Origin: an uncultured bacterium
GTDB taxonomy: Bacteria; B130-G9
Direction of reading: 5' to 3'
DNA: 61,837 nt
Assembly: GCA_965372715.1 (NCBI GenBank)
Contig: CBDVDH010000017.1
Location: forward strand, 1-61,837
In this document: positions 4,360 to 31,081 of the stretch, piece after piece
Position numbering within the stretch: the first letter of the stretch is position 1
Layout of the letters: every line of letters starts with the position of its first letter
Position numbers and translations under genes: made by a program
Notes under the pieces: model-generated
The model's input: the letters and a program-made list of their open reading frames with translations, nothing else
Databases searched by the model: none
What the model was told of the DNA's origin: nothing

Positions 4360-5151
4360 CTAGGGCGTCGCAAAGAAGTCTCGGTCGGATTCGTGCAGCG
4401 TCAGAATTCTCGGGCCTTGCGAGGTTATCGCGATTGCGTGCTCGAACTGCGCGGAGAGGCGGCCATCGGCGGTCACGGCTGTCCATTGGTCACTTTTGAG
4501 CTTCAACCTGTAGGTTCCCTCATTGATCATTGGTTCCAGACAGAAGACCATCCCCTCCTGGATTGGCGCCCCGTGGCCCTTTCGGCCATAGTGCGGGACC
4601 TGCGGGTCCTCGTGCAGCGACCGCCCAAGCCCGTGCCCGACGAAGTCCCGAACGACTGAGAAACCGTGGGATTCAACGTAGCTCTGAATGGCATATCCGA
4701 TGTCGCCCAGCCTGTTGCCCGGCCTTGCCGCCTCGATCGCGAGCTTGAGAGACATCTTGGTCACATCAAAGAGCCGTTTAGCTCTTGCCGTCGGCGTGCC
4801 CACTAGAATCGATATGGCTGTATCACCGTGGAAACCGTCCTTCAGGACGCCGATGTCTAACTTCAACAGGTCGCCGGACTTCAGCTTGCGGTCGGAGGGT
4901 ATCCCGTGGACTATCTCCTCATTGACGCTCGTCGTGATGGAGCCCGGGAAAGGCGGAAGCCCAGCGAGCGAATAGCCCTTGAAGGAAGGTCTAGCGCCGC
5001 TTTTCAGGATGAGCTCCTCGGCCATCATGTCGAGTTCCCGGGTCGTGACGCCTGGCCTTGACGCAAGCCTCAGCTGATACAGGACTTCGGCGGAGATCTG
5101 GCACGAACGCTCGATGGCCTCTATTTCTCGGGCGCTTTTGAGATCGATCAT
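4360..5151 (-). CDS. map: Type I methionine aminopeptidase
   Basis: SVNEEIVHGIP, DGFHGDTA, GHGLGRSLHEDP, EPMIN, SAQFEH. Confidence 0.97.
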   Translation of the reverse strand: MIDLKSAREIEAIERSCQISAEVLYQLRLASRPGVTTRELDMMAEELILKSGARPSFKGYSLAGLPPFPGSITTSVNEEIVHGIPSDRKLKSGDLLKLDIGVLKDGFHGDTAISILVGTPTARAKRLFDVTKMSLKLAIEAARPGNRLGDIGYAIQSYVESHGFSVVRDFVGHGLGRSLHEDPQVPHYGRKGHGAPIQEGMVFCLEPMINEGTYRLKLKSDQWTAVTADGRLSAQFEHAIAITSQGPRILTLHESDRDFFATP

Positions 5152-5175
5152 CTGTCGGCCGGAAGCGGCTCCCGG

Positions 5176-7551
5176 CTACTCTCTGATATCGACGAGCCGG
5201 CGGTATTGGGCATCGAAACCAACCTCGAGAGATGAACTCGGCCTCTTGGCAACTGAGTTCTTCTGAATCGTTACCATGAGCCTGTCGATCATGTGTCTGC
5301 TTGCACTCCTCTCCCCTGTCGCGGAATACGGTTGATGATGCAGGCTGAGTATGATGCTGGCATAAGGCTCAACCCGCAGCGAAACCGAAAGCGGCGCCTC
5401 GCCCAGGTCCCCGCCCTCGGAGCGGATGTGTTCGACCCAGGGGGTGTTCGTCACGAGCAGCGGAGCGTTGACGCGCCTGGCAGCGTCCAATAGGTCTCTG
5501 GCGGCCGAGCCGAGCTGCGTCTCGTTCTCAATCGGTGAGGTCTTATCCCACGCCAACATCCCGAGACTATCAACTACCACAAGGCCGATTCGAACATTCC
5601 CGGACATCATCTGGCAAATCTCCTGGATGTCCGAGGCGCAGTAACGGGAGTGAAATGGCTCCTCTATCACGACAAGCTTGTCCCTGTATTTCGTGAACTC
5701 CTCCGCCGCATTCAGGTATTTCTGATAGTTGCTTGCCCCAGCCTCGAGCTGCTTCTCCACAATCTGGTGGTGAGGTATCTCAAACTCATTTGAAATCAGC
5801 ATGTTGAAGACAGTCATTCGCTGGTTCTCAAAGCTGAAGAATAGTATGGAGTCCTCGTGGTTACGAAGAGTGTGCGAGATAACTTGGGCGCAGAATGTGG
5901 TTTTTCCTGAACCAGGCAATCCGGAGACTAGTGTCATCTCGGCTGGGCGGAGAGAGATGTATTCGTCCAGGGTGGCTACGCCCGTCTTAAGACCCGGCCT
6001 TGACGCCTCATACGCATCGACAAGGTCGCGCGGGTTGTAGAACGAGCGCATGAGCTCGTCTTCCGAAACGCTGATGACCGCGACCTCCTCGAGGTCCTCG
6101 GTGCTGACCGACCAGGAGAACCCCATCTCGAGATCGTCCTTTCGCTTCGTCTCCATCTGCTCGATGACGTTACGCGCAAGAGAATCGGGACTCTCAGTGG
6201 GTGCGGTCTTCTTGAGCTGTTCCAGCACGATGCACCAGAAATGCGGGTCCCACTTTATCTTGTCGCCGATCTCATAGACAAACTCCTTCGCATCCTCCGA
6301 GGCAAGCTCGAGACTGGCTTTCGCTGCGGCCTTTCTCGCCTCGGCAACGCTGCTGTCCTTTGCGAGATCGTAGGTTGAGCTGAGCTCCTTGCCGAGCCAC
6401 CGCCCGATCGAATAGAGCCCGGAATGACTCGTCATGCACTTGTCGAAATGGTCGAAGCCTCGCGTCTGAATGAGGTCCCTTAGGTCCTCTACACCCTCCG
6501 GCAACGCCATCACATCGGCCTTGACGCCGAGCTCGCAGATAATCGACGCGAAATCCGCCGTCAATTCCCTCCCACCAGCGGTCAATGGGGTTATGAAAAT
6601 GAAGTGCTCCGCCCCGAGCCTCTGAAGCGATTGGAGCTTCTCCTTAGTAGGTCTCAGCCCCACGCCCAGGGAGACCATCTGCTTGAATATCTTGAACGTC
6701 CTGTTGCTCTCGTGTTGTATCGAGATTGCATCCACCTCCGAGGCTGCAACCCAAGCACTCCGCTCGCTTGCGATCATCGGCGTCGCCTGCTCCAAGCCAA
6801 ACAGCGACATGCTCTGGAGGTCCTCGCTGAAGCCAGGCATTGCCATTCTGTTCTCCGGATTGGCTGGTTCTGTGCCGATAAAGCCGGTGATGTTGCCCTG
6901 AGCGTCGCCATAGCCAAAAAGAAATGGATAACTCGACTCGAGCTCGTCCGAAATAATACCAGCAGCCTCGACGAAATCGCGCCGGATATCCATCTTCTTA
7001 AGGTGCTGGTGGATCTCGTCGCCGGTAGTGTATATGCCCAGTGGGAACGCCATAAGCGCTCGCTCCGTCATTCCCACCTCCTTGAAATAACCCTTCGCAG
7101 CGCTCGCGACCGGAGAACTGCTCCGCTGAAACGCCTTTGAGAAGTAATAGCCCAGCACGCCGAAAACCGTGAGCTTCTTCCAGGTAGTTTCCATTTTCTC
7201 CCAGTCACTCTGCGACATTTCGAGGTCGGAAGCGTCAATACCAGCCTTCTGGGCCAAAAGCGCAACGCCGTCCTGCAAAGAGCCCGTCTTCTTGACAGCC
7301 GTCGTCAGCCAGTTGCCGCGATATCCGCACATCCTGCACGAACCGCCAGGCCAGGCCTTTGGAAGAACGAAACTCTGACGAGCTCCTTCATGCTTCGGAT
7401 TAGGACACATAGTTACGTATGAAGTCTCGCCCTCTTTGAACCGCTTCAGCGGCGAAATGCCCTCAGGCCCCCACACCGCCTCGTGCGTGAGTTTGCCGAA
7501 TATCTTCTCCGTAACAGCGTAATAGACGTTTCTGCCGGCATCCTTAGTCAT
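5176..7551 (-). CDS. DnaG-like primase / DnaB-like helicase fusion, apparently degenerate
   Basis: N-terminal CPNPKH...CRMC zinc finger, Toprim-like region (LFGLEQA, LPEGVEDLRDLI), C-terminal RecA/SF4 domain with GLPGSGKTT, FFSFEN, LVVVDSL. Confidence 0.7.
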   Translation of the reverse strand: MTKDAGRNVYYAVTEKIFGKLTHEAVWGPEGISPLKRFKEGETSYVTMCPNPKHEGARQSFVLPKAWPGGSCRMCGYRGNWLTTAVKKTGSLQDGVALLAQKAGIDASDLEMSQSDWEKMETTWKKLTVFGVLGYYFSKAFQRSSSPVASAAKGYFKEVGMTERALMAFPLGIYTTGDEIHQHLKKMDIRRDFVEAAGIISDELESSYPFLFGYGDAQGNITGFIGTEPANPENRMAMPGFSEDLQSMSLFGLEQATPMIASERSAWVAASEVDAISIQHESNRTFKIFKQMVSLGVGLRPTKEKLQSLQRLGAEHFIFITPLTAGGRELTADFASIICELGVKADVMALPEGVEDLRDLIQTRGFDHFDKCMTSHSGLYSIGRWLGKELSSTYDLAKDSSVAEARKAAAKASLELASEDAKEFVYEIGDKIKWDPHFWCIVLEQLKKTAPTESPDSLARNVIEQMETKRKDDLEMGFSWSVSTEDLEEVAVISVSEDELMRSFYNPRDLVDAYEASRPGLKTGVATLDEYISLRPAEMTLVSGLPGSGKTTFCAQVISHTLRNHEDSILFFSFENQRMTVFNMLISNEFEIPHHQIVEKQLEAGASNYQKYLNAAEEFTKYRDKLVVIEEPFHSRYCASDIQEICQMMSGNVRIGLVVVDSLGMLAWDKTSPIENETQLGSAARDLLDAARRVNAPLLVTNTPWVEHIRSEGGDLGEAPLSVSLRVEPYASIILSLHHQPYSATGERSASRHMIDRLMVTIQKNSVAKRPSSSLEVGFDAQYRRLVDIRE

Positions 7552-19873: not shown

Positions 19874-19902
19874 TTGACAGCAGGGACTTTTTTGGTCATA
19901 AT
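19874..19902 (+). promoter_or_regulatory. Sigma70-type promoter for the beta-helix protein gene
   Basis: TTGACA-17 bp-CATAAT. Confidence 0.6.
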
Positions 19903-20152
19903 AAATCGAGAGAAGGGAAGCGAGACGGAAGATAGGGCATGGGTTTAGCTCGCACCCTATCATCTTGTCCTCCCCGCGGAGGCAACTTCACATGCTCCCT
20001 CCCCTTGAACGGAATGCATTTGAGCACACAGAGGTTGGACGACTAATCGTGACACTGAAGCGAGGTGAGAAACAGGGAAAAGCCTATCGGAAGAGACAAT
20101 CCTTTTATTTGTAGTGCCTTCGGGCAAGCACATCCCAAACAGGAGAAAACCG

Positions 20153-23100
20153 ATGAGACTTCATCGACAAATGGTCTTAGCGATTGCGGTCGTGGCGATC
20201 TTCGCGATAGTCGTCGCGGGCGCTTATGCTGACGACTACTATGTTGCGACTACTGGCAGCGACACTACAGGTGATGGGTCGTCCGGGAATCCCTGGCAGA
20301 CTGTTGCCCACGCGCTGAGCTGGATAAGCACCAACGATCCGGGCAGCGTTGTGGACCCTCACACGATCTACATAGCGGCCGGAACGTATGATTCGAGCAT
20401 CGGCGAGAGCTACCCGCTCACGATGCAGAGCTACGTCTCGCTCTCAGGCGACGACGAAGCCACTACAATCCTCGACGCTGAAAACAACGAATATCACGTC
20501 ATCTATTGTTACAGCGCCAACAACTTCACAATCGAGAACCTCACGATAACCCGCGGCAACGCTAATGGCCCATCCGAGGACGCGCGCGGCGGCGGCATCT
20601 ATTGCCGCGGAAGTTCGCCGACGCTGACCAACTGCACGGTCTCGGCCAACTTCGCGCGCTTCGGCGGCGGCATCTACTACGGGTACAGTAGTTCGCCGAC
20701 GCTGACCAACTGCACCGTGTCGGCCAACAGTGCGGACTACTTTGGCGGCGGCATCTATAGCTACGTTGGTTCGCTGACGCTGACAGGCTGCGCGGTCTCG
20801 GGCAACACCGCAGACCTCCACGGCGGCGGCATCTACTGCTACGACAGTTCGCCGACTATCACGGACTGCACGCTCTCGGGCAACACGGCCAGCGACTTTG
20901 GCGGCGGCATTTCTTGTGGGTCCAGCTCAAACCCCGAACTGATGAACTGCCTGCTCGTTGACAACTCTGCCAACTACGGCGGTGGCGTTCACTGCGAGGA
21001 AGACAACGGCAACCCCCCGACGCTCACCAACTGCACAATAGCGGACAACAGCGCCTCGGAGAGTGACGGTGGTGGCGGCATCTATTGCGTGTCAGGCAGC
21101 ACCGTTACGGTGAAGAACGGCATCCTGTGGGGCGACACCGCCAACGGCGCCTCGGACGAGATCAGCGGATACGGGACGGTTACGGTCACCTACTCAGACG
21201 TTGAGGGGGGCTGGACTGGAACCGGGAATATCGACGAGGACCCGCTCTTTGTGGGCAGCTACTACCTGAGCCACGTTGCAGCTGGCCAGGACAACGATAG
21301 CCCGTGCATCGACCGAGGCGACGACACGGCGGCCAACCTCGGCCTGGACGACCGCACCACGCGTGTGGATGGCGGTTACGACACCGGGCAGGTTGACATG
21401 GGCTATCACTACGACGAGGGTTCAGGGCTACACCACTACGTTGACAAGACGCACGGTGACGACAGCAACGGGGGCACAAGCTGGGAAGATGCCTTTGCCA
21501 CCATTCAGAAGGGCATCAACTCGTGCAACACGGGCAGCTCGGGGGATCCGGATATGGTCCATGTTGCCGCCCAAACGTATTATGAGAACATCGTGCTCGA
21601 CAGCTACATCACGCTTTGGGGTGGCTATCCCGCTGGCGGCGGCGCTCTCGATCCTGACCTGAACGTAACGATCATTGACGGCGATGCCGATGGTACCGTG
21701 GTCAGGATTAACGGCAAAGACGAAGTAACCGTCGATGGCTTCACGATCCAAAACGGCAAGACCACCGGTGGCGGCGGCGGCATCCGCTGCATCAACAGTT
21801 CGGCTAGGCTAGCTGATTGCACAATATCTGACAACATCTCCGCTGCCTCCGGCGGGGGCATCTACTGCTACGACAGTTCGCCGACGCTGACCGACTGCAC
21901 AATATCAGGCAACAGCACCAGTTACCACGGCGCCGGAATCTACTACTATGGTGGTTCGCCGGCCCTGAGGGGCTGCACGGTCTCTGACAATACAGCGGAC
22001 CAGGACGGTGGCGGCATCTACTGCATCGACAGTTCCCCGACGCTGACGAACGGCCTTATCAGCAGCAACACGGCGGACTTCGGCGGCGGCATCTACTGCT
22101 ACGAAAGTTCGCCGACTGTGACCAACTGCACGCTTGCTGACAATCAAGCATACAGCTATGGCGGCGGCATCTACTGTTACGATTCAGGCTCCCATCCGGA
22201 CATTGAGAACTGCATCTTGTGGGGCGACACCGCGGGCGGAGTGTCCAACGAGATCAGCGGCAGCGGGACGGTTACGGTCACCTACTCAGACGTTGAGGGG
22301 GGCTGGGCTGGAACCGGGAATATCGACGAGGACCCGCTCTTTGTGGGCAGCTACTACTTGAGCCACATCGCAGCTGGCCAGTCAAGCGACAGCCCGTGCA
22401 TCGACGTCGGCAGCGACACGGCGGCCAACCTCAACCTTGATGACCGCACAACGCGTGTGGACGGCGTTTACGACACAGGCCAGGTTGACATGGGATATCA
22501 CTACGACGAGGGTTCGGAGCTGCACCATTATGTGGATGCCGCAAGCGGCGACGACAATGACAGCGGCGACAGCTGGGATGATGCCTTCGCGACGATTCAA
22601 AAGGCCATTGACGTTTGCGAGGAGGGCACGTGCGACGACCCGGATGTGATCCACGTCGCCGAGGGTACATACGTTGAGAACCTCGTCCTGGATAGCAATA
22701 TCACGATGTTGGGTGGCTATCCCGCCGGCGGCGGCGCCCGCGATCCCGATACATACGAGACGATCATTGATGGTAACGCTGTTGACAGTGTGGTCACGAT
22801 TGACGCAAAAGAGTGCCTCACGATTGATGGCTTCACGATCACAAATGGTTCAGCCACTAATGGCGGTGGGATATACTGCTATGATAGTTCGCCGACGCTG
22901 ATCGACCTTACAATTTCGAATAATGATGCCTACGACGGCGCCGGCATGTATTGTAGCAACAGTTCGCCGACGCTGACCGACTGCACGCTCTCCGACAACG
23001 AGGCGAGCCACGACGGCGGCGGCATCTATTATTACTACTACAGTTCAGGGACGCTGACGGGCTGTAGGTTCTCAGGCAACGAGGCTGGCCGCGGCGGCGG

Positions 23101-24301
23101 CATCTACGCCTACCATCATAGTTCGCCGGATCTGACCGGTTGTGGGCTCTCCGACAACCACGCGGACACCTACGGTGGCGGCATCTGTGGCCACTATTAT
23201 AGTTCAGGGACGCTGACGAACTGCACGATTAGTGGCAACACTGCGTACTACGACGGCGGCGGAGCCTACTACTTCGACAACTGTTCGCCGACGCTGACCG
23301 ACTGCACGCTCTCCGACAACAGGGTGAGCTCCGACGGCGGCGGCATTTTGTGTCGGTACCGCTCAGATCCGGAACTAACCAACTGCCTGATCGTCAGCAA
23401 CTCCGCCAACTACGGTGGCGGCTTTCACTGCGAGGAATACAGCGGCTACCCATCGTCCCCGACGCTGACCAACTGCACGATAGCGGACAATGAGGCCTCC
23501 GAGACCGACGGTGGTGGCGGCATCTACTGCCAGGCCGGGAACACAGTCACCGTGAAGAACTCGATACTCTGGGGCGACACGGCGGGCGGAGTGTCCAACG
23601 AGATCAGCGGCGACGGCACGGTTACCGTCACCTACTCCGACGTCGAGGGCGGCTGGACCGGAACGGGCAACATCGACGAGGACCCGATGTTCGTGCCGCA
23701 TGATGAGTACGGACGGCACACCGCGTATTACCTGGCACACGAAGGCGCCCAGGCTGTCTACAGCCCGTGCGTGGATGCGGGAAGCGGGAGCGTCTCCGAC
23801 TACGGCCTTGAAGGCACAACGACATGCACTGACGGGCGAGAGGACGGCGACGACGACGGCAACGGAGACACGGGACCGATCGACATGGGCTATCACTATC
23901 CGGAAGGATACGATGGCGAGGACGACACCTACATCGAGCTCGCCTCGTTCGAGGCGCGAGCGGATGGCTCGAGCGTTGTCCTGACCTGGGAGACGGGCGC
24001 CGAGATCAGAAACGCCGGCTTTGTCCTCTTCAGGACGATCGCGGGCGTAAAGGACTATAGGCAGATAAGCGACCTGATAGGGGCTAGGGGCACGCCTGCT
24101 TCTGGCGCGTCATACAGTTTCACAGACAGCAATGTCGAGCCAGGTGTCATGTATGAGTATTGGCTGGTTGACATCGAGACCAGCGGCAAGTGGACCGCCC
24201 ACGGGCCTGCGTCGGCCGGATTGCCAATGAGCCTCAATTTGATCCAACTGCCATCCGCCTTCGCACAAGGCTACGGCGGACAAGCCACCAATGCTCGATA
24301 G
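20153..24301 (+). CDS. Large secreted right-handed beta-helix repeat protein (three tandem modules plus C-terminal FN3/Ig-like domain)
   Basis: RBS AGGAG then ATG 20153; signal peptide; many GGGIYCxxSSPTLTNCTxSxN repeats; three SPCxD...DMGYHY module ends; C-terminal YIELASFEA...LTWETGAEIRNAGF. Confidence 0.88.
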   Translation: MRLHRQMVLAIAVVAIFAIVVAGAYADDYYVATTGSDTTGDGSSGNPWQTVAHALSWISTNDPGSVVDPHTIYIAAGTYDSSIGESYPLTMQSYVSLSGDDEATTILDAENNEYHVIYCYSANNFTIENLTITRGNANGPSEDARGGGIYCRGSSPTLTNCTVSANFARFGGGIYYGYSSSPTLTNCTVSANSADYFGGGIYSYVGSLTLTGCAVSGNTADLHGGGIYCYDSSPTITDCTLSGNTASDFGGGISCGSSSNPELMNCLLVDNSANYGGGVHCEEDNGNPPTLTNCTIADNSASESDGGGGIYCVSGSTVTVKNGILWGDTANGASDEISGYGTVTVTYSDVEGGWTGTGNIDEDPLFVGSYYLSHVAAGQDNDSPCIDRGDDTAANLGLDDRTTRVDGGYDTGQVDMGYHYDEGSGLHHYVDKTHGDDSNGGTSWEDAFATIQKGINSCNTGSSGDPDMVHVAAQTYYENIVLDSYITLWGGYPAGGGALDPDLNVTIIDGDADGTVVRINGKDEVTVDGFTIQNGKTTGGGGGIRCINSSARLADCTISDNISAASGGGIYCYDSSPTLTDCTISGNSTSYHGAGIYYYGGSPALRGCTVSDNTADQDGGGIYCIDSSPTLTNGLISSNTADFGGGIYCYESSPTVTNCTLADNQAYSYGGGIYCYDSGSHPDIENCILWGDTAGGVSNEISGSGTVTVTYSDVEGGWAGTGNIDEDPLFVGSYYLSHIAAGQSSDSPCIDVGSDTAANLNLDDRTTRVDGVYDTGQVDMGYHYDEGSELHHYVDAASGDDNDSGDSWDDAFATIQKAIDVCEEGTCDDPDVIHVAEGTYVENLVLDSNITMLGGYPAGGGARDPDTYETIIDGNAVDSVVTIDAKECLTIDGFTITNGSATNGGGIYCYDSSPTLIDLTISNNDAYDGAGMYCSNSSPTLTDCTLSDNEASHDGGGIYYYYYSSGTLTGCRFSGNEAGRGGGIYAYHHSSPDLTGCGLSDNHADTYGGGICGHYYSSGTLTNCTISGNTAYYDGGGAYYFDNCSPTLTDCTLSDNRVSSDGGGILCRYRSDPELTNCLIVSNSANYGGGFHCEEYSGYPSSPTLTNCTIADNEASETDGGGGIYCQAGNTVTVKNSILWGDTAGGVSNEISGDGTVTVTYSDVEGGWTGTGNIDEDPMFVPHDEYGRHTAYYLAHEGAQAVYSPCVDAGSGSVSDYGLEGTTTCTDGREDGDDDGNGDTGPIDMGYHYPEGYDGEDDTYIELASFEARADGSSVVLTWETGAEIRNAGFVLFRTIAGVKDYRQISDLIGARGTPASGASYSFTDSNVEPGVMYEYWLVDIETSGKWTAHGPASAGLPMSLNLIQLPSAFAQGYGGQATNAR

Positions 24302-24314
24302 GAAGGAGAGAATA

Positions 24315-24434
24315 ATGAAGACGAATAAGGCCTACGAGAAGCCGAAAGTGATGACGTTGGACGGCGAGGCGCTGATGGCGACACTGGGCCCGAGCCTGTC
24401 CTGTACGGGCTTTGGCGGCTCTGTCAGCTGCTGA
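24315..24434 (+). CDS. Unannotated 39-aa peptide, RiPP-precursor-like
   Basis: RBS AAGGAG; MKTNKAYEKPKVMTLDGEALMATLGPSLSCTGFGGSVSC; GC-rich codon usage; followed by a terminator. Confidence 0.75.
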   Translation: MKTNKAYEKPKVMTLDGEALMATLGPSLSCTGFGGSVSC

Positions 24435-24475
24435 TAGCCTGAATTGATATCTGCCGCGCTTGGCGCGGGTTGACG

Positions 24476-24508
24476 AGGGGCGGAGCGTTTCCGCCCCTTT
24501 CGTTTTTT
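24476..24508 (+). terminator. Rho-independent terminator
   Basis: AGGGGCGGA-GCGTT-TCCGCCCCT followed by TTCGTTTTTT. Confidence 0.8.
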
Positions 24509-24719
24509 GCCTCGGAGACTCTATCGGCCCATACTTGCGCCGCTTCCCTGTGTGCTGCCCTGGACGCTTGCTTGCGGGACCGGGGAAACGTGATATATTA
24601 GTAAGGTTGTGACGGTTGGTCGATATAGAATCAGGACATTTGGCAATGCGCTCGAGCTGATGGCCTTGCGCCGCAATCCAGCCGGCAGCTCAGTTTTCTG
24701 CGTTATCGAGTGACGAAGG

Positions 24720-27676: not shown

Positions 27677-27913
27677 GATACAGCATCAAGAATTCACCGC
27701 GAAAACCTCCCGACGCTATGCATGTGATTGGGGCGCACTAACGCTCTTGCTGCAGGGCGAAAGGTTCTGCATTCTCCTTTTGTCTGCCGAACTGATTCTT
27801 TACTGTTGCCTAACGACTGTCCTTTATCTTATAGTCCGCGTATCGAAGTAGTCACCATCCGCCGTTGCAGGGGCCGGAGCGCGGGAATATCAACATTATG
27901 CAGGAAGAAACAG

Positions 27914-30900
27914 GTGTTTAGAAAAGCGTCATCCAACTACGACCAGCACGAGATTGAGCCGAGGATACTGAAGCTTTGGGAAGCTGGCCGCATGTTCGAG
28001 CGCCTCGTGCAGCAGAACAAAGATGGCCCTAGATTCTCGTTCATTGATGGGCCGATAACGGCGAACAACAAGATGGGCGTGCACCACGCTTGGGGCCGGA
28101 CTTACAAGGATATATTCGTTCGGTACAAGGCAATGCAGGGCTTTCATCAGCGCTATCAGAACGGTTTCGACTGCCAGGGCCTTTGGGTTGAGGTCGAGGT
28201 CGAGAAGGACTTGGGCCTCAACTGCAAGAGCGACATCCGGACCTATGGCTTGGATAAGTTCTCGACGAGGTGCAAGGAGCGGGTGCAGAAATACGCCCGC
28301 GTGATTGCGGAGCAGTCGAAGCGGCTAGGCCAGTGGATGGACTGGGAGAACAGCTACTTCACGATGACGGACACGAACATCGAGTATATCTGGATGTTCA
28401 TCAAGCGATGCCACGAGAACGGCTGGCTTTATCGCGGCAAGCACGTCATGCCCTGGTGCATTCGCTGCGGGACCTCGTTGTCCCAGCACGAGATGGTCGA
28501 TTCGTATCGAGAGGTCAAGCACCCGTCAGTTTTTCTTCGCCTTCCGATTGTCGGTCGTGACAACGAGTTCTTCATGGTCTGGACGACGACGCCCTGGACG
28601 CTTGCCGCCAATACGTCGCTAGCCGTCAATCCTGAACTGACTTATGTAAAGGCAGAGCACGACGGCGGGATCGTGTATCTGTCGAAGGGCACTCTTGCCG
28701 ATGTCTTAGGCGATGGCGCCCGGGTGGTCTCCGAGCACAATGGGAGAGAATTCGAGGGCTGGCGGTATCGTGGGCCGTTCGACGAGCTTCCTGTCCAGCA
28801 AGGTATTGACCACAGAGTTGTCTGTGACCAAATGGTCGGGGAGACGGAGGGAACGGGCATCGTCCATATTGCGCCCGGCTGCGGGGCGGAGGACTTCGAG
28901 GTCCAAAGGCGCGAGGGTTTGGGGATGGTTGATCCAGTCGATGAGGCTGGGCGCTATTATGATGGTTTCGGCGAGCTTTCGGGCGTGCTCGTTACTGAAG
29001 TCGCTCCGAAGGTTTACGAGTCGCTCAAGGAGAAGGGGTATCTCCTGAGGAAAGAGAAGATTGAACACCGCTATCCGGTCTGTTGGCGCTGCGGCGATGA
29101 GCTGATCTTCAAATTGGTCGAGGAATGGTTCATCAGGTGCGAGCAGCTCAGAGAACCTCTGATTGAGGCGGCCAGGACGGTCAAGTGGATGCCGGATTAC
29201 ATGGGGAAGCGGATGGAGGACTGGCTCAACAACATGCAGGACTGGTGCATCTCTCGGCGCCGGTTCTGGGGTCTGCCGCTGCCGTTTTACTATTGTGAGG
29301 ACTGCGGTCATATAATGATCGTAGGCTCTAGGGATGAGTTGGCCAAGCTCGCTGGCATCTCTGCGGACGAGCTTCCCGAGCTTCATCGGCCCTGGATCGA
29401 CGAGGTAGTGATCAAGTGCGAGGAATGCGGCGGCAAGGCCATAAGGACAGAGGACGTTGGCGACTGTTGGCTCGATGCTGGCATTGTCCCATTCTCAACG
29501 CTGAAATACAAAGAGGACCGCGGATACTGGGAGAAGTGGTTTCCGGCCGAGTTCATCTGCGAGATGCGGGAACAGATACGGCTGTGGTTCTACTCGATGT
29601 TGTTCATGGGCGTAACGCTCGAGAACCGCGCGCCTTACGAGAGCGTCCTGATTCACGAGAGGGTCTTTGACGAACGTGGCAACCCGATGCACAAGAGCCT
29701 GGGCAACGTCATCTGGTTTGACGAGGCGGCAGACAAGATCGGCACCGACGTCATGCGTTGGCTCTTCGCCTCGCAGAATACGGCCTATAACATCAATTTC
29801 GGCTACGGCCCCGCGAAGGAGATAAAGCGAAGGTTGCTCACTTTTTGGAACTCTTACACGTTCTTCATGACTTACGCAAGCCTCGACCAGCCGGAAGTTA
29901 GCCTGACCCTGGATACTATGCCGGCTTCGCCGCTCAAAAACCTCACTGAGCTGGATCGCTGGATACTATCGCGGCTTCATACGGTGATTGAGCGGGCGAC
30001 GGAGGCTTACGAGCGCTACAGCGTGATCTTTGTGGTCAAGCATGTCGAGGCGTTCTTCGATGACCTTTCAAATTGGTATATCCGCCGTAATCGCAGGCGC
30101 TTCTGGAGGGCCAGCTCCGATACTGACAAGCAGGCGGCATATCAGACGCTTTACACGGTGCTGGTTGAGGTCACGAGGCTGATTGCGCCGATCGTTCCGT
30201 TTTTGAGCGAGGAGATATATCAGAATCTGGTTGTGAGCGTTCACTCTGATGCGCCTCAGAGCGTGCATCTGAGCGATTTCCCGAAGGCGAGGCGGGACTT
30301 GATTGACGAGGGGCTGGAGGAGGATGTCGCACTCGTAAAGCGCGTCGTGAGCCTGGGCCTTTCCGCGAGGAACAAGGCAGGGATCAAGGTGCGCCAGCCG
30401 CTGAGGAGGCTCCTTGTCAGGCTCGAAGGCCCTGAGCAGGAAAGCGGGCTGGAGCGCTTCATAGATGAGATGCTCGATGAGTTGAACGTCAAGAAAGTCG
30501 AGGTGCTCGAATCGCTGGATGGCGTTGCGGCGCCCAGTGTGAGGTTCAATCTGAAGCTCGTGGGCCCGAGACTTGGGCCAAAGCTGGTCGAGGCGAGGCG
30601 CGTGCTTGACGCGGAGAAGGACCGCGTATATCAAGTCGCGATGAGAGGTGAATCGGTATCGCTCAGGGTCGATGGCCAGGATTTGCCGTTTGCGCCTTCA
30701 GAGCTCATCCTGGATATCGTGGGCCTCGAAGGTTATTCGGTGGCGGCTGAGGGGGCGATGGCGGTTGCTCTGGATACCGTTCTAGACGAGGAGCTTTTCG
30801 TCGAGGGGACGGTTCGGGAGCTGGTGCGGCACGCACAGGTTATGCGGAAGGACGCGGGGTTTAACGTAGAGGACCGGATCGATCTTTATGTCATCTGCGG

Positions 30901-31081
30901 GGCTCAGGCGAGGTCCAGGATCGAGACGAGGGTCGATTTCCTGGCGCGGGAGACGCTCGCGACGAGTGTGAGGTTTGAACAGTCTCCTGATGGCGCGTTC
31001 TCAAGGACCGTTGTGCTTCAGACTGTTCAGGGCCAGAAGGGTGAGGAAGTGACGCTGGCCGTGGTGAGGCGCGGCATGTAG
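27914..31081 (+). CDS. ileS: Isoleucine--tRNA ligase, type 2 (eukaryote-like)
   Basis: DGPITAN, GVHH, GFDCQGLWVE, WTTTPWTL, GTGIVHIAPG, DWCISRRRFWG, PMHKS, WYIRRNRRRFW, KVRQPL; GTG start at 27914. Confidence 0.95.
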   Translation: MFRKASSNYDQHEIEPRILKLWEAGRMFERLVQQNKDGPRFSFIDGPITANNKMGVHHAWGRTYKDIFVRYKAMQGFHQRYQNGFDCQGLWVEVEVEKDLGLNCKSDIRTYGLDKFSTRCKERVQKYARVIAEQSKRLGQWMDWENSYFTMTDTNIEYIWMFIKRCHENGWLYRGKHVMPWCIRCGTSLSQHEMVDSYREVKHPSVFLRLPIVGRDNEFFMVWTTTPWTLAANTSLAVNPELTYVKAEHDGGIVYLSKGTLADVLGDGARVVSEHNGREFEGWRYRGPFDELPVQQGIDHRVVCDQMVGETEGTGIVHIAPGCGAEDFEVQRREGLGMVDPVDEAGRYYDGFGELSGVLVTEVAPKVYESLKEKGYLLRKEKIEHRYPVCWRCGDELIFKLVEEWFIRCEQLREPLIEAARTVKWMPDYMGKRMEDWLNNMQDWCISRRRFWGLPLPFYYCEDCGHIMIVGSRDELAKLAGISADELPELHRPWIDEVVIKCEECGGKAIRTEDVGDCWLDAGIVPFSTLKYKEDRGYWEKWFPAEFICEMREQIRLWFYSMLFMGVTLENRAPYESVLIHERVFDERGNPMHKSLGNVIWFDEAADKIGTDVMRWLFASQNTAYNINFGYGPAKEIKRRLLTFWNSYTFFMTYASLDQPEVSLTLDTMPASPLKNLTELDRWILSRLHTVIERATEAYERYSVIFVVKHVEAFFDDLSNWYIRRNRRRFWRASSDTDKQAAYQTLYTVLVEVTRLIAPIVPFLSEEIYQNLVVSVHSDAPQSVHLSDFPKARRDLIDEGLEEDVALVKRVVSLGLSARNKAGIKVRQPLRRLLVRLEGPEQESGLERFIDEMLDELNVKKVEVLESLDGVAAPSVRFNLKLVGPRLGPKLVEARRVLDAEKDRVYQVAMRGESVSLRVDGQDLPFAPSELILDIVGLEGYSVAAEGAMAVALDTVLDEELFVEGTVRELVRHAQVMRKDAGFNVEDRIDLYVICGAQARSRIETRVDFLARETLATSVRFEQSPDGAFSRTVVLQTVQGQKGEEVTLAVVRRGM

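Follow-up and report, generated by a model that had tools for sequence, protein, structure and literature searches.

A Short Peptide Family Genetically Coupled to a Radical SAM Cassette and to Secreted Proteins with a Shared C-Terminal Domain in Uncultured Bacteria

Introduction

In the usual view, precursors of ribosomally synthesized and posttranslationally modified peptides (RiPPs) give rise to free small molecules or cofactors. We describe here a family of probable RiPP precursors whose genes are instead wired, one by one, to genes for secreted proteins. The member studied here is a 39-residue open reading frame (ORF) at positions 24315 to 24434 of a 61,837-nucleotide stretch of DNA from an uncultured bacterium; we refer to that whole stretch as the window. 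The ORF lies directly behind the gene for a large, secreted-looking protein, the cargo. A preliminary description, made from the letters of the window, proposed that it encodes an orphan precursor, modified in trans and paired with a surface protein through the C-terminal domain (CTD) of that protein. Gene order and homology now support this proposal. Genetic coupling of the peptide family is firmly supported on both sides, namely, to CTD-bearing secreted proteins and to a cassette that encodes a RiPP recognition element (RRE), a radical S-adenosylmethionine (SAM) enzyme, and a sortase-type peptidase.

Several described systems resemble parts of this arrangement. RiPPs that depend on an RRE and a radical SAM/SPASM enzyme, such as the sactipeptides and ranthipeptides, share with it a short precursor, a Tyr-x-x-Pro leader, a Cys-containing core, and a PqqD-like protein next to a SPASM enzyme. 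Among the lasso-cluster kinases (paeninodin PadeK) and in Haft's "HPr-rel-A system" (TIGR04352, TIGR04353), an HprK-related kinase stands beside a PqqD-family chaperone and a small precursor. In Porphyromonas gingivalis's type IX secretion system (T9SS), as in the loci studied here, unrelated secreted proteins have a common C-terminal β-sandwich and there is a C25 peptidase of the PorU type with His and Cys motifs. PorU joins the C termini of its cargo to an amine, and peptides can be used, according to two reports (PMC4560394, PMC8545088). Sortase A and lipoprotein-type processing offer a further likeness, in that a small-x-small sequence precedes an invariant Cys and an S26-type peptidase is encoded in the cassette; sortase A also supplies the idea, shared with the ligation proposed below, of an amine nucleophile that resolves a thioester acyl-enzyme. 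By analogy, the system described here may combine a radical SAM RiPP pathway of the RRE-dependent kind with a sorting step of the PorU/CTD type.

By the features and scores examined, it nevertheless belongs neither to the lasso peptides nor to the T9SS, nor to the named families of radical SAM maturases or to the HPr-rel-A and SynChlorMet cassettes. Compared with sactipeptide and ranthipeptide systems, its maturase scores far under the cut-offs, its cassette adds a PorU-like homologue, and its precursor genes are dispersed, paired with secreted-protein genes, and share a single universal Cys. Against the HPr-rel-A system, TIGR04352 reached 52.7 and 57.8 bits, compared with 200 required, and TIGR04353 reached 17.4 bits, compared with 35. 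Unlike lasso-kinase clusters, the genome has no lasso protease over its cut-off, and no cyclase was seen in the cassettes, the cyclase family itself having not been searched for. The PorU-family score is 244 bits, under the cut-off of 420, and the carriers, instead of being Bacteroidota, have the labels Thermodesulfobacteriota, Aminicenantes, Sumerlaeota, and probably Coatesbacteria. We know of no RiPP machinery in the T9SS. A search for PorV gave no match, and one for SprA gave none either, but the SprA control also matched nowhere. In contrast to lipoprotein processing, the peptide leader has no hydrophobic signal segment, the peptide departs from the lipobox consensus, and the S26-like protein has no predicted membrane segment.

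The peptide gene and its family

The ORF runs on the forward strand from an ATG at 24315 to a TGA at 24432 to 24434, and its product is MKTNKAYEKPKVMTLDGEALMATLGPSLSCTGFGGSVSC. The gene upstream (20114 to 24301) encodes 1395 residues and ends in a TAG at 24299 to 24301, leaving a gap of 13 nt to the peptide ATG, and an AAGGAG ribosome-binding site (24303 to 24308, forward strand), read from the sequence, lies 6 nt 5′ of that ATG. The ORF, the 39-residue product, the 13-nt gap, and AAGGAG all stand in the DNA exactly as the preliminary description gave them. The ORF listing carries the same frame as 24291 to 24434, from an earlier in-frame ATG that overlaps the stop of the upstream gene. We place the putative boundary between leader and core between residues 29 and 30. 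The leader (residues 1 to 29; 24315 to 24401, forward strand) contains YEKPKV, an instance of the family motif YExPxV, then LGP, and ends in S-L-S. The proposed core, CTGFGGSVSC (residues 30 to 39, with the stop; 24402 to 24434, forward strand), starts with the invariant Cys and has Cys as its last residue. No Pfam or NCBIfam model matched the peptide at an E value of ≤1.

The source genome (G000; 3.56 Mb in 112 contigs, 95.9% complete, the window's contig being C17) carries seven copies of the peptide, with E values of 2.5e-22 to 2.1e-9. A family hidden Markov model (HMM) run on the genome with all filters off likewise gave seven copies, at E values of ≤7.1e-22, and the next match had an E value of 0.78. 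Seventeen of the 39 positions are invariant among the copies (Y7, E8, P10, V12, T14, L24, S27 to T31, F33 to V37, and C39), C30 and C39 both being among them. Over the 31 aligned codons of the paralogues, pairwise comparison gave 264 synonymous versus 200 nonsynonymous differences. In the 14 core codons, L24 to V37, the counts were 168 synonymous versus 18 nonsynonymous, switches between AGY and TCN serine codons included, which argues for selection on the amino acid sequence and not on DNA or RNA. By this codon pattern, the 39-residue ORF is a real gene under purifying selection.

The homologues anticipated in the genome and its relatives were readily found. Besides the seven own copies, all six sister genomes of the same family were positive (2 to 16 matches each), as were none of the 34 genomes of other families in the same sample. 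A collection of 5.8 billion proteins contained 94 metagenome clusters at an E value of ≤0.01, with no name beyond "hypothetical protein." A library at 50% identity yielded 26 representatives at an E value of ≤0.001, diverged forms among them; four of these are long repeat proteins with partial matches. A search of sequencing runs listed no RNA run, and all the runs listed had small DNA shares, which bears on neither expression nor habitat.

We compiled motif statistics on 109 short family members, taking the 108 that have the leader motif as the base. The spacing from the leader Tyr to the first core Cys is exactly 23 residues in 106 of the 108. Before that Cys, position −3 is occupied by S, A, or T in every member and position −1 by S or A in 107. 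A second Cys is present in 104 members, and Cys is the last residue in 95. The YxxPx(V/L) motif and the two Cys residues that had been noticed in the single peptide are thus features kept family-wide, the motif as YExPxV. The core is almost invariant over the 94 metagenome clusters, and across diverged members, the first Cys is the sole universally conserved core residue. The leaders show no h-region of a Sec signal or lipoprotein and have D and E throughout the would-be h-region (e.g., SEDEIIE in the delta-type peptides).

One sister genome, G004, has 7 of its 16 matches within about 11 kb of contig C209, in what looks like an array of cargo-peptide units. In G000, the copy on contig C6 (30313 to 30423, reverse strand; L012, 8314 to 8424) is divergent, with the core GTSLSCTVFGGSVKC, and lies behind a gene for a 927-residue protein without the CTD; a GAACTTT-type tandem repeat is found just 5′ of it. 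The region also has an M15 endolysin-like gene and other, unmatched ORFs and may be a prophage, a weak label given that a PHROGs search of the surroundings matched only the endolysin-like M15 peptidase. Variants resembling the C6 copy recur in metagenomes (P0082, P0087, P0097, and P0102). We dismissed a YEPPSLTLD match near the cassette on contig C15 (66212 to 66466; E value of 28), which overlaps a MazG gene on the opposite strand.

Pairing with genes for secreted proteins

Eight proteins encoded next to peptide genes in G000 share a C-terminal stretch of about 100 residues, from which we built a CTD HMM. Run on G000, it found 12 ORFs at E values of ≤5.5e-50, which we call strong, plus five weaker ones. 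A peptide gene adjoins 8 of the 12 strong CTD genes. Viewed from the peptides, five of the seven genes begin 13 to 65 nt downstream of a same-strand CTD gene (on C17, C31, C14 twice, and C89), and a sixth, on C62, lies directly before the gene for a CTD-bearing C25 peptidase. That peptidase (C62, 16111 to 18628; L011) has 814 residues and is distinct from the PorU-like protein of the cassette described below; G000 has eight C25-domain loci altogether, one of them in a 3970-residue ORF on C1. We looked for a cryptic peptide gene within about 900 nt downstream of the weaker CTD gene on C54 and found none.

The same arrangement holds in the sister genomes, where our count covers 25 of the 43 matches outside G000. 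A CTD ORF lies upstream on the same strand in 20 of the 25 loci, at less than 100 nt in 17, about 150 nt in 1, and about 440 to 490 nt in 2. Among the remaining loci, one has a CTD gene just downstream, three have none within 1.5 kb, and one is at a contig edge. The expectation that peptide copies would follow genes with the YIEL..SF...WETG.E..NAGF domain was thus borne out at 5 of 7 loci in the genome itself, at 20 of 25 in its sisters, and, as detailed below, at 11 of 20 in other phyla.

In the window, the cargo gene (20114 to 24301, forward strand; assigned from the ORF and its domain matches) encodes a secreted-looking parallel β-helix protein with an N-terminal, hydrophobic, signal-like segment. 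It matched Beta_helix (1e-74), NosD, Chlam_PMP, DUF1565, and para_beta_helix repeats and is made up of three similar modules. Modules 1 and 2 each end in a near-identical stretch of about 80 residues, DEDPLFVG...GQVDMGYHYDEGS, which suggests a recent internal duplication.

The CTD itself (about residues 1273 to 1370; 23930 to 24223, forward strand), delimited with the own-genome HMM and a structure model, is predicted to be an Fn3/Ig-like β-sandwich; the model has six strands and a pLDDT of 85.5. A Foldseek search returned generic Fn3/Ig matches only, the best at an E value of 2.3e-4 and a TM score of about 0.5. The top match was a domain of the T9SS cargo PPAD, which is not meaningful at these values. 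No Pfam or NCBIfam family matched the CTD, and no T9SS CTD family was found at an E value of ≤1 with the whole cargo (Pfam and NCBIfam) or of ≤0.1 with the CTD alone (NCBIfam only). Alignment of CTDs across two lineages gave 20 invariant columns, and an H..P..A..P motif was invariant in 17 of 17 sequences. In the cargo, the motif (HGP..A..P) is followed by a C-terminal tail (24224 to 24298, forward strand), placed by alignment and modelled with low confidence, whose last residue is Arg. The tails of the eight peptide-neighbour proteins end in Arg in seven cases, and we regard the cargo tail as a candidate processing or sorting signal. The N-terminal parts of the G000 neighbours vary, with β-helix/DUF1565, Kelch plus DUF1565, and C25 peptidase types, and one cargo from another phylum has multihaem cytochrome-like and UshA-like matches under the NCBIfam cut-offs. 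A complex prediction for the CTD and the peptide gave a score of 0.02 (mark, 0.32), which weighs neither for nor against such a complex.

A probable maturation cassette on another contig

The preliminary description had seen no RRE or SPASM enzyme around the peptide and had postulated a maturase acting in trans. Our searches agree: neither PqqD nor SPASM matched anywhere on contig C17, and PqqD (RRE) matches in G000 were confined to contig C15 (locus L051), where a PqqD-like protein and an RRE-radical SAM/SPASM enzyme form the single candidate. The cassette there has five genes. They encode a PqqD-like protein of 91 residues (PqqD domain), a radical SAM enzyme of 463 residues that has a PqqD domain at its N terminus and also a SPASM domain, an HprK-like kinase of 398 residues (TIGR04352, 53 bits against a cut-off of 200), a C25 peptidase of 1117 residues that is nearest to the T9SS sortase PorU (NF033707, 244 bits against 420), and an S26-type peptidase of 199 residues resembling archaeal-type signal peptidase I (TIGR02228, 52.7 bits against 51.85). 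A family 2 glycosyltransferase gene adjoins the cassette both here (L051, 6795 to 7787, reverse strand) and in locus L062 (1686 to 2660, forward strand), perhaps by chance or for further tailoring.

The closest solved structure to the radical SAM enzyme was 5wgg, which we take to be the thioether-forming enzyme CteB, followed by an anaerobic sulfatase maturase. None of the named NCBIfam maturase families that we searched (StsB, PapB, mycofactocin MftC, ScmE/F, GeoRSP, and SCIFF) scored over its cut-off, the values being 138 bits of 625 for StsB, 137 of 265 for MftC, 121 of 400 for ScmE, and 97 of 340 for PapB; the radical SAM enzymes of loci L062 and L070 likewise fell under the named maturase cut-offs. 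Orthologues with 55 to 97% identity are present in all six sister genomes, and elsewhere in the sample, we found partial matches of ≤37% identity. A homologue at 69% identity is labelled Candidatus Coatesbacteria by NCBI, so that the window probably comes from this candidate phylum or from one close to it.

In an alignment of the PorU-like protein with gingipain R, "yaGHGn" lies over "YTGHGS" and "tltCLNG" lies over "DVACVNG" (GHG and C-x-NG), so that the His and Cys that are presumably catalytic in C25 peptidases have counterparts. The PorU-like protein has a signal-like hydrophobic N terminus, and no hydrophobic or membrane segment was predicted in the HprK-like and S26-like proteins. The S26-like protein has GxSMxPT and HR motifs, which we take to be the catalytic motifs of S26-type peptidases. 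Searches of G000 found neither YcaO nor LanC, and Transglut_core3 (PF13471) stayed below its cut-off of 26 bits, the best match, in an unrelated ORF of 679 residues, scoring 23. We therefore dropped the azoline, lanthipeptide, and lasso routes.

Loci in other phyla

Searched with four diverged family members, species-representative genomes yielded 20 loci. Their metagenome-assembled genomes (MAGs) are labelled Thermodesulfobacteriota, Candidatus Aminicenantes, Deltaproteobacteria/delta proteobacterium/Proteobacteria, Candidatus Sumerlaeota, and plain "bacterium." The peptides keep YE(A/P)P(K/R)(V/I), LGP, and the small-x-small site, with no change in the spacing of the Cys, and their tails vary (e.g., CSPSPCPTYQ, CSPFGGSVIGC, and CTNPCPVP).

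In 6 of the 20 loci (L062, L063, L064, L070, L076, and L081), the peptide gene is beside PqqD and radical SAM genes, an arrangement for which, in G000, the cassette is on a different contig; some of these family members sit between the PqqD and RRE-radical SAM genes. Genes for HprK-like and PorU-like proteins are also present in L062, L064, L070, and L076, and L070 has an S26-like gene as well. A PorU-like homologue was found in all five cassettes seen with an HprK-like gene. The cassette proteins of other phyla are reciprocal best matches to the C15 proteins, with wide margins over the next match in G000 (354 versus 92 bits for the radical SAM enzyme and 520 versus 236 bits for the PorU-like protein).

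The CTD recurs as well. In 11 of the 20 loci, the peptide is directly behind a CTD gene recognized by the own-genome HMM at E values of 1e-19 to 1e-35, in 1 it is directly before such a gene, and 2 loci have neither the cassette nor the CTD arrangement. A CTD gene also lies inside the cassette in L062 and directly behind the radical SAM gene in L081. The CTDs of other lineages are 32 to 43% identical to that of the window. With cassettes, dispersed peptide genes, and CTD cargo genes all seen in other phyla, the three-part arrangement recurs in distant lineages.

Some of these loci have peculiarities of their own. The L062 cargo (4958 to 7396; Thermodesulfobacteriota) has, after its CTD, a CFI-box-CTERM domain (NF041770, 99.8 bits, over the cut-off) and a terminal hydrophobic anchor and so carries two sorting signals in series. 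In one copy in L080 (4147 to 4239), TAG replaces the Gln codon of GPAQTC, which marks either a pseudogene or an assembly variant. In the Aminicenantes locus L064 (9938 to 10237), the cassette peptide is extended at its C terminus by a long stretch rich in Pro and Ala, which closes with a second YEPP motif. L081 also encodes an NTP_transf_5 protein.

Proposed function and alternatives

We consider it probable that the peptide is a RiPP-type precursor modified in trans by the C15 cassette. It would be produced jointly with the β-helix cargo, and its function would be tied to the CTD that this cargo has in common with about a dozen other secreted proteins. The YExPxV leader, a fixed 23 residues before the Cys, would be the handle for the only RRE system of the genome. 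In RiPP pathways generally, the leader strand binds PqqD or the RRE, and it would do so here. The radical SAM/SPASM enzyme would then modify the core, most likely at the invariant Cys and with thioether-type chemistry; as the sole universally conserved core residue, this Cys is the likely modification site. Precursor kinases of lasso clusters are HPr-kinase-like, and the HprK-like kinase may phosphorylate a Ser or Thr of the peptide. In lasso clusters, the residue phosphorylated is the C-terminal Ser of the precursor, according to a passage in PMC9266682. The leader may be cut at [S/A/T]-x-[S/A] directly before the Cys, exposing an N-terminal Cys. Type I signal peptidases follow a −3/−1 small-residue rule, and both the fit of the site to this rule and the presence of an S26-type enzyme in the cassette point to such a cut.

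The most speculative step concerns the cargo. The acyl-enzyme of P. gingivalis PorU is a thioester, which free amines resolve, medium peptides included when the natural acceptor is lacking, according to PMC4560394 and PMC8545088. By analogy, the PorU-like enzyme could remove the C-terminal signal of the cargo, and the new N-terminal Cys of the peptide could resolve the thioester intermediate, an N-terminal-Cys peptide being potentially a good acceptor for such an acyl-enzyme. Every cargo molecule would in that event end in a single peptide as a RiPP-derived cap or anchor, and this one-for-one use would account for every cargo gene having a peptide copy of its own. That the RiPP-modified peptide is in this way the co-substrate of a new protein-sorting system, ligated by a PorU-like sortase to the cargo encoded upstream, is a tentative idea to which we give a substantial chance, though one well short of even.

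Several observations weigh against the reading of the peptide as a trans-modified partner of CTD proteins. Four of the 12 strong CTD genes have no recognizable peptide gene within about 900 nt downstream, and one of the seven copies, that on C6, has no CTD neighbour, so pairing is not obligatory. The cassette in G000 holds no peptide gene, and action in trans is therefore assumed. Since the seven genomes are close kin, the co-occurrence of peptide and cassette within the family is not independent evidence. The cassette proteins, apart from the S26-type peptidase with its 52.7 bits against 51.85, score under the curated NCBIfam cut-offs, so that their chemistry is not confidently transferable; the S26-like gene is present in only two of the four cassettes whose downstream side is visible; and no conserved exporter or immunity gene was seen in the cassettes examined. 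Modification, binding, and ligation are all read from gene order and homology. Ligation also faces a problem of topology: radical SAM enzymes work in the cytoplasm and the precursor lacks a signal peptide, whereas the PorU-like protein looks exported.

An ordinary free RiPP that the C15 cassette produces, whether a signal or an antimicrobial of the sactipeptide or ranthipeptide sort, would have the same leader and Cys core and the same RRE-radical SAM/SPASM cassette. Duplication of a 3′ module would then have put the peptide next to CTD genes incidentally, with no functional tie to protein sorting. Other RiPPs are known to have several precursor genes in one genome, and the four strong CTD genes without a peptide copy fit this explanation. 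We nevertheless think it unlikely, because adjacency is kept between lineages whose CTDs are 32 to 43% identical, which argues for selection and not for recent duplication. The PorU-like sortase homologue in every cassette that has an HprK-like gene, and the CTD genes within the L062 cassette and directly behind the L081 radical SAM gene, also speak against it, as does a core that is nearly invariant over 94 clusters, which would be unusual for diversifying antimicrobials. Nor did we see exporter or immunity genes in the cassettes.

A small protein that stays unmodified and binds the CTD or the PorU-like enzyme, be it as escort, chaperone, or regulator, would equally account for one-to-one pairing and tight coupling to the cargo gene. 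This is distinctly improbable, given the members in other phyla whose genes sit between those for PqqD and the RRE-radical SAM enzyme and given a Tyr-x-x-Pro leader whose fixed spacing to the Cys fits enzyme recognition.

The preliminary description had likened the leader motif to that of lasso and radical SAM RiPPs. The radical SAM side of this comparison gained a PqqD/SPASM cassette; on the lasso side, the likeness stops at the leader motif. YxxPxL is indeed the lasso leader motif, and a search of the ESM Atlas, which otherwise returned unnamed clusters, gave "Lasso RiPP family leader peptide" as the nearest named one (score, 0.82; a lead only). The L070 peptide also has a weak match to NF033528 (lasso_cyano), at an E value of 0.015 and under the cut-off. 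A lasso precursor is nonetheless scarcely credible here. Lasso precursors have an Asp or Glu at core position 7 to 9, which closes the macrolactam, and a conserved Thr as the penultimate leader residue. Here, neither Asp nor Glu follows the leader. The Gly of LGP offers the one possible core start in the lasso style, and the residue two before it varies (T, A, V, Q, S, and others). The best Transglut_core3 score, in the 679-residue ORF, is below its cut-off, and the cassettes hold a radical SAM enzyme, with no cyclase seen among their genes.

A chance ORF or a noncoding element, such as a terminator-region or attenuator sequence, would fit the shortness of the frame and the lack of a Pfam or NCBIfam match but is contradicted by amino acid conservation with free synonymous change, AGY/TCN serine switches included, and by homologues in MAGs labelled as several phyla, and we set it aside.

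We found no published description of the system in the full-text literature, a scope that leaves subscription-only papers and supplements outside, and motif strings gave no match there. The suggestion that the system might be undescribed is in keeping with this result, and the peptides are apparently an unnamed precursor family of a multi-phylum system not yet described. By MAG label, the arrangement extends over four or more phyla, whose members are mostly uncultured bacteria of sediments. Should peptide and CTD be functionally linked, the system would be a new way to finish or anchor surface proteins that stands apart from the T9SS of Bacteroidota; it would, moreover, be a natural peptide-to-protein ligation system of biotechnological interest. 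A conservative reading still adds three unnamed families, namely, the precursor, the CTD, and the five-gene cassette.

Other features of the window

The peptide gene looks like the second of a two-gene unit. Its 3′ end may be marked by an intrinsic-terminator-like hairpin with a T-run, found by a site scan at 24475 to 24509 (forward strand); the hairpin itself (24475 to 24499) has 11 pairs, 7 of them GC, and is followed by TCGTTTTTTG. The terminator that had been called clear is thus present as a hairpin and T-run, but the region had four such sites where shuffles led us to expect 4.0; taken by itself, the hairpin is therefore not significant. A promoter-like site, TTGACA-17 nt-CATAAT (19874 to 19902, forward strand), matches at 11 of 12 positions and, lying about 210 nt 5′ of the large gene, is a possible operon promoter; with two sites in the region against 2.3 expected, it is weak evidence taken alone. 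Farther downstream, positions 27728 to 31081 encode an isoleucyl-tRNA synthetase, whose 1117 residues equal the length of the unrelated PorU-like protein by coincidence.

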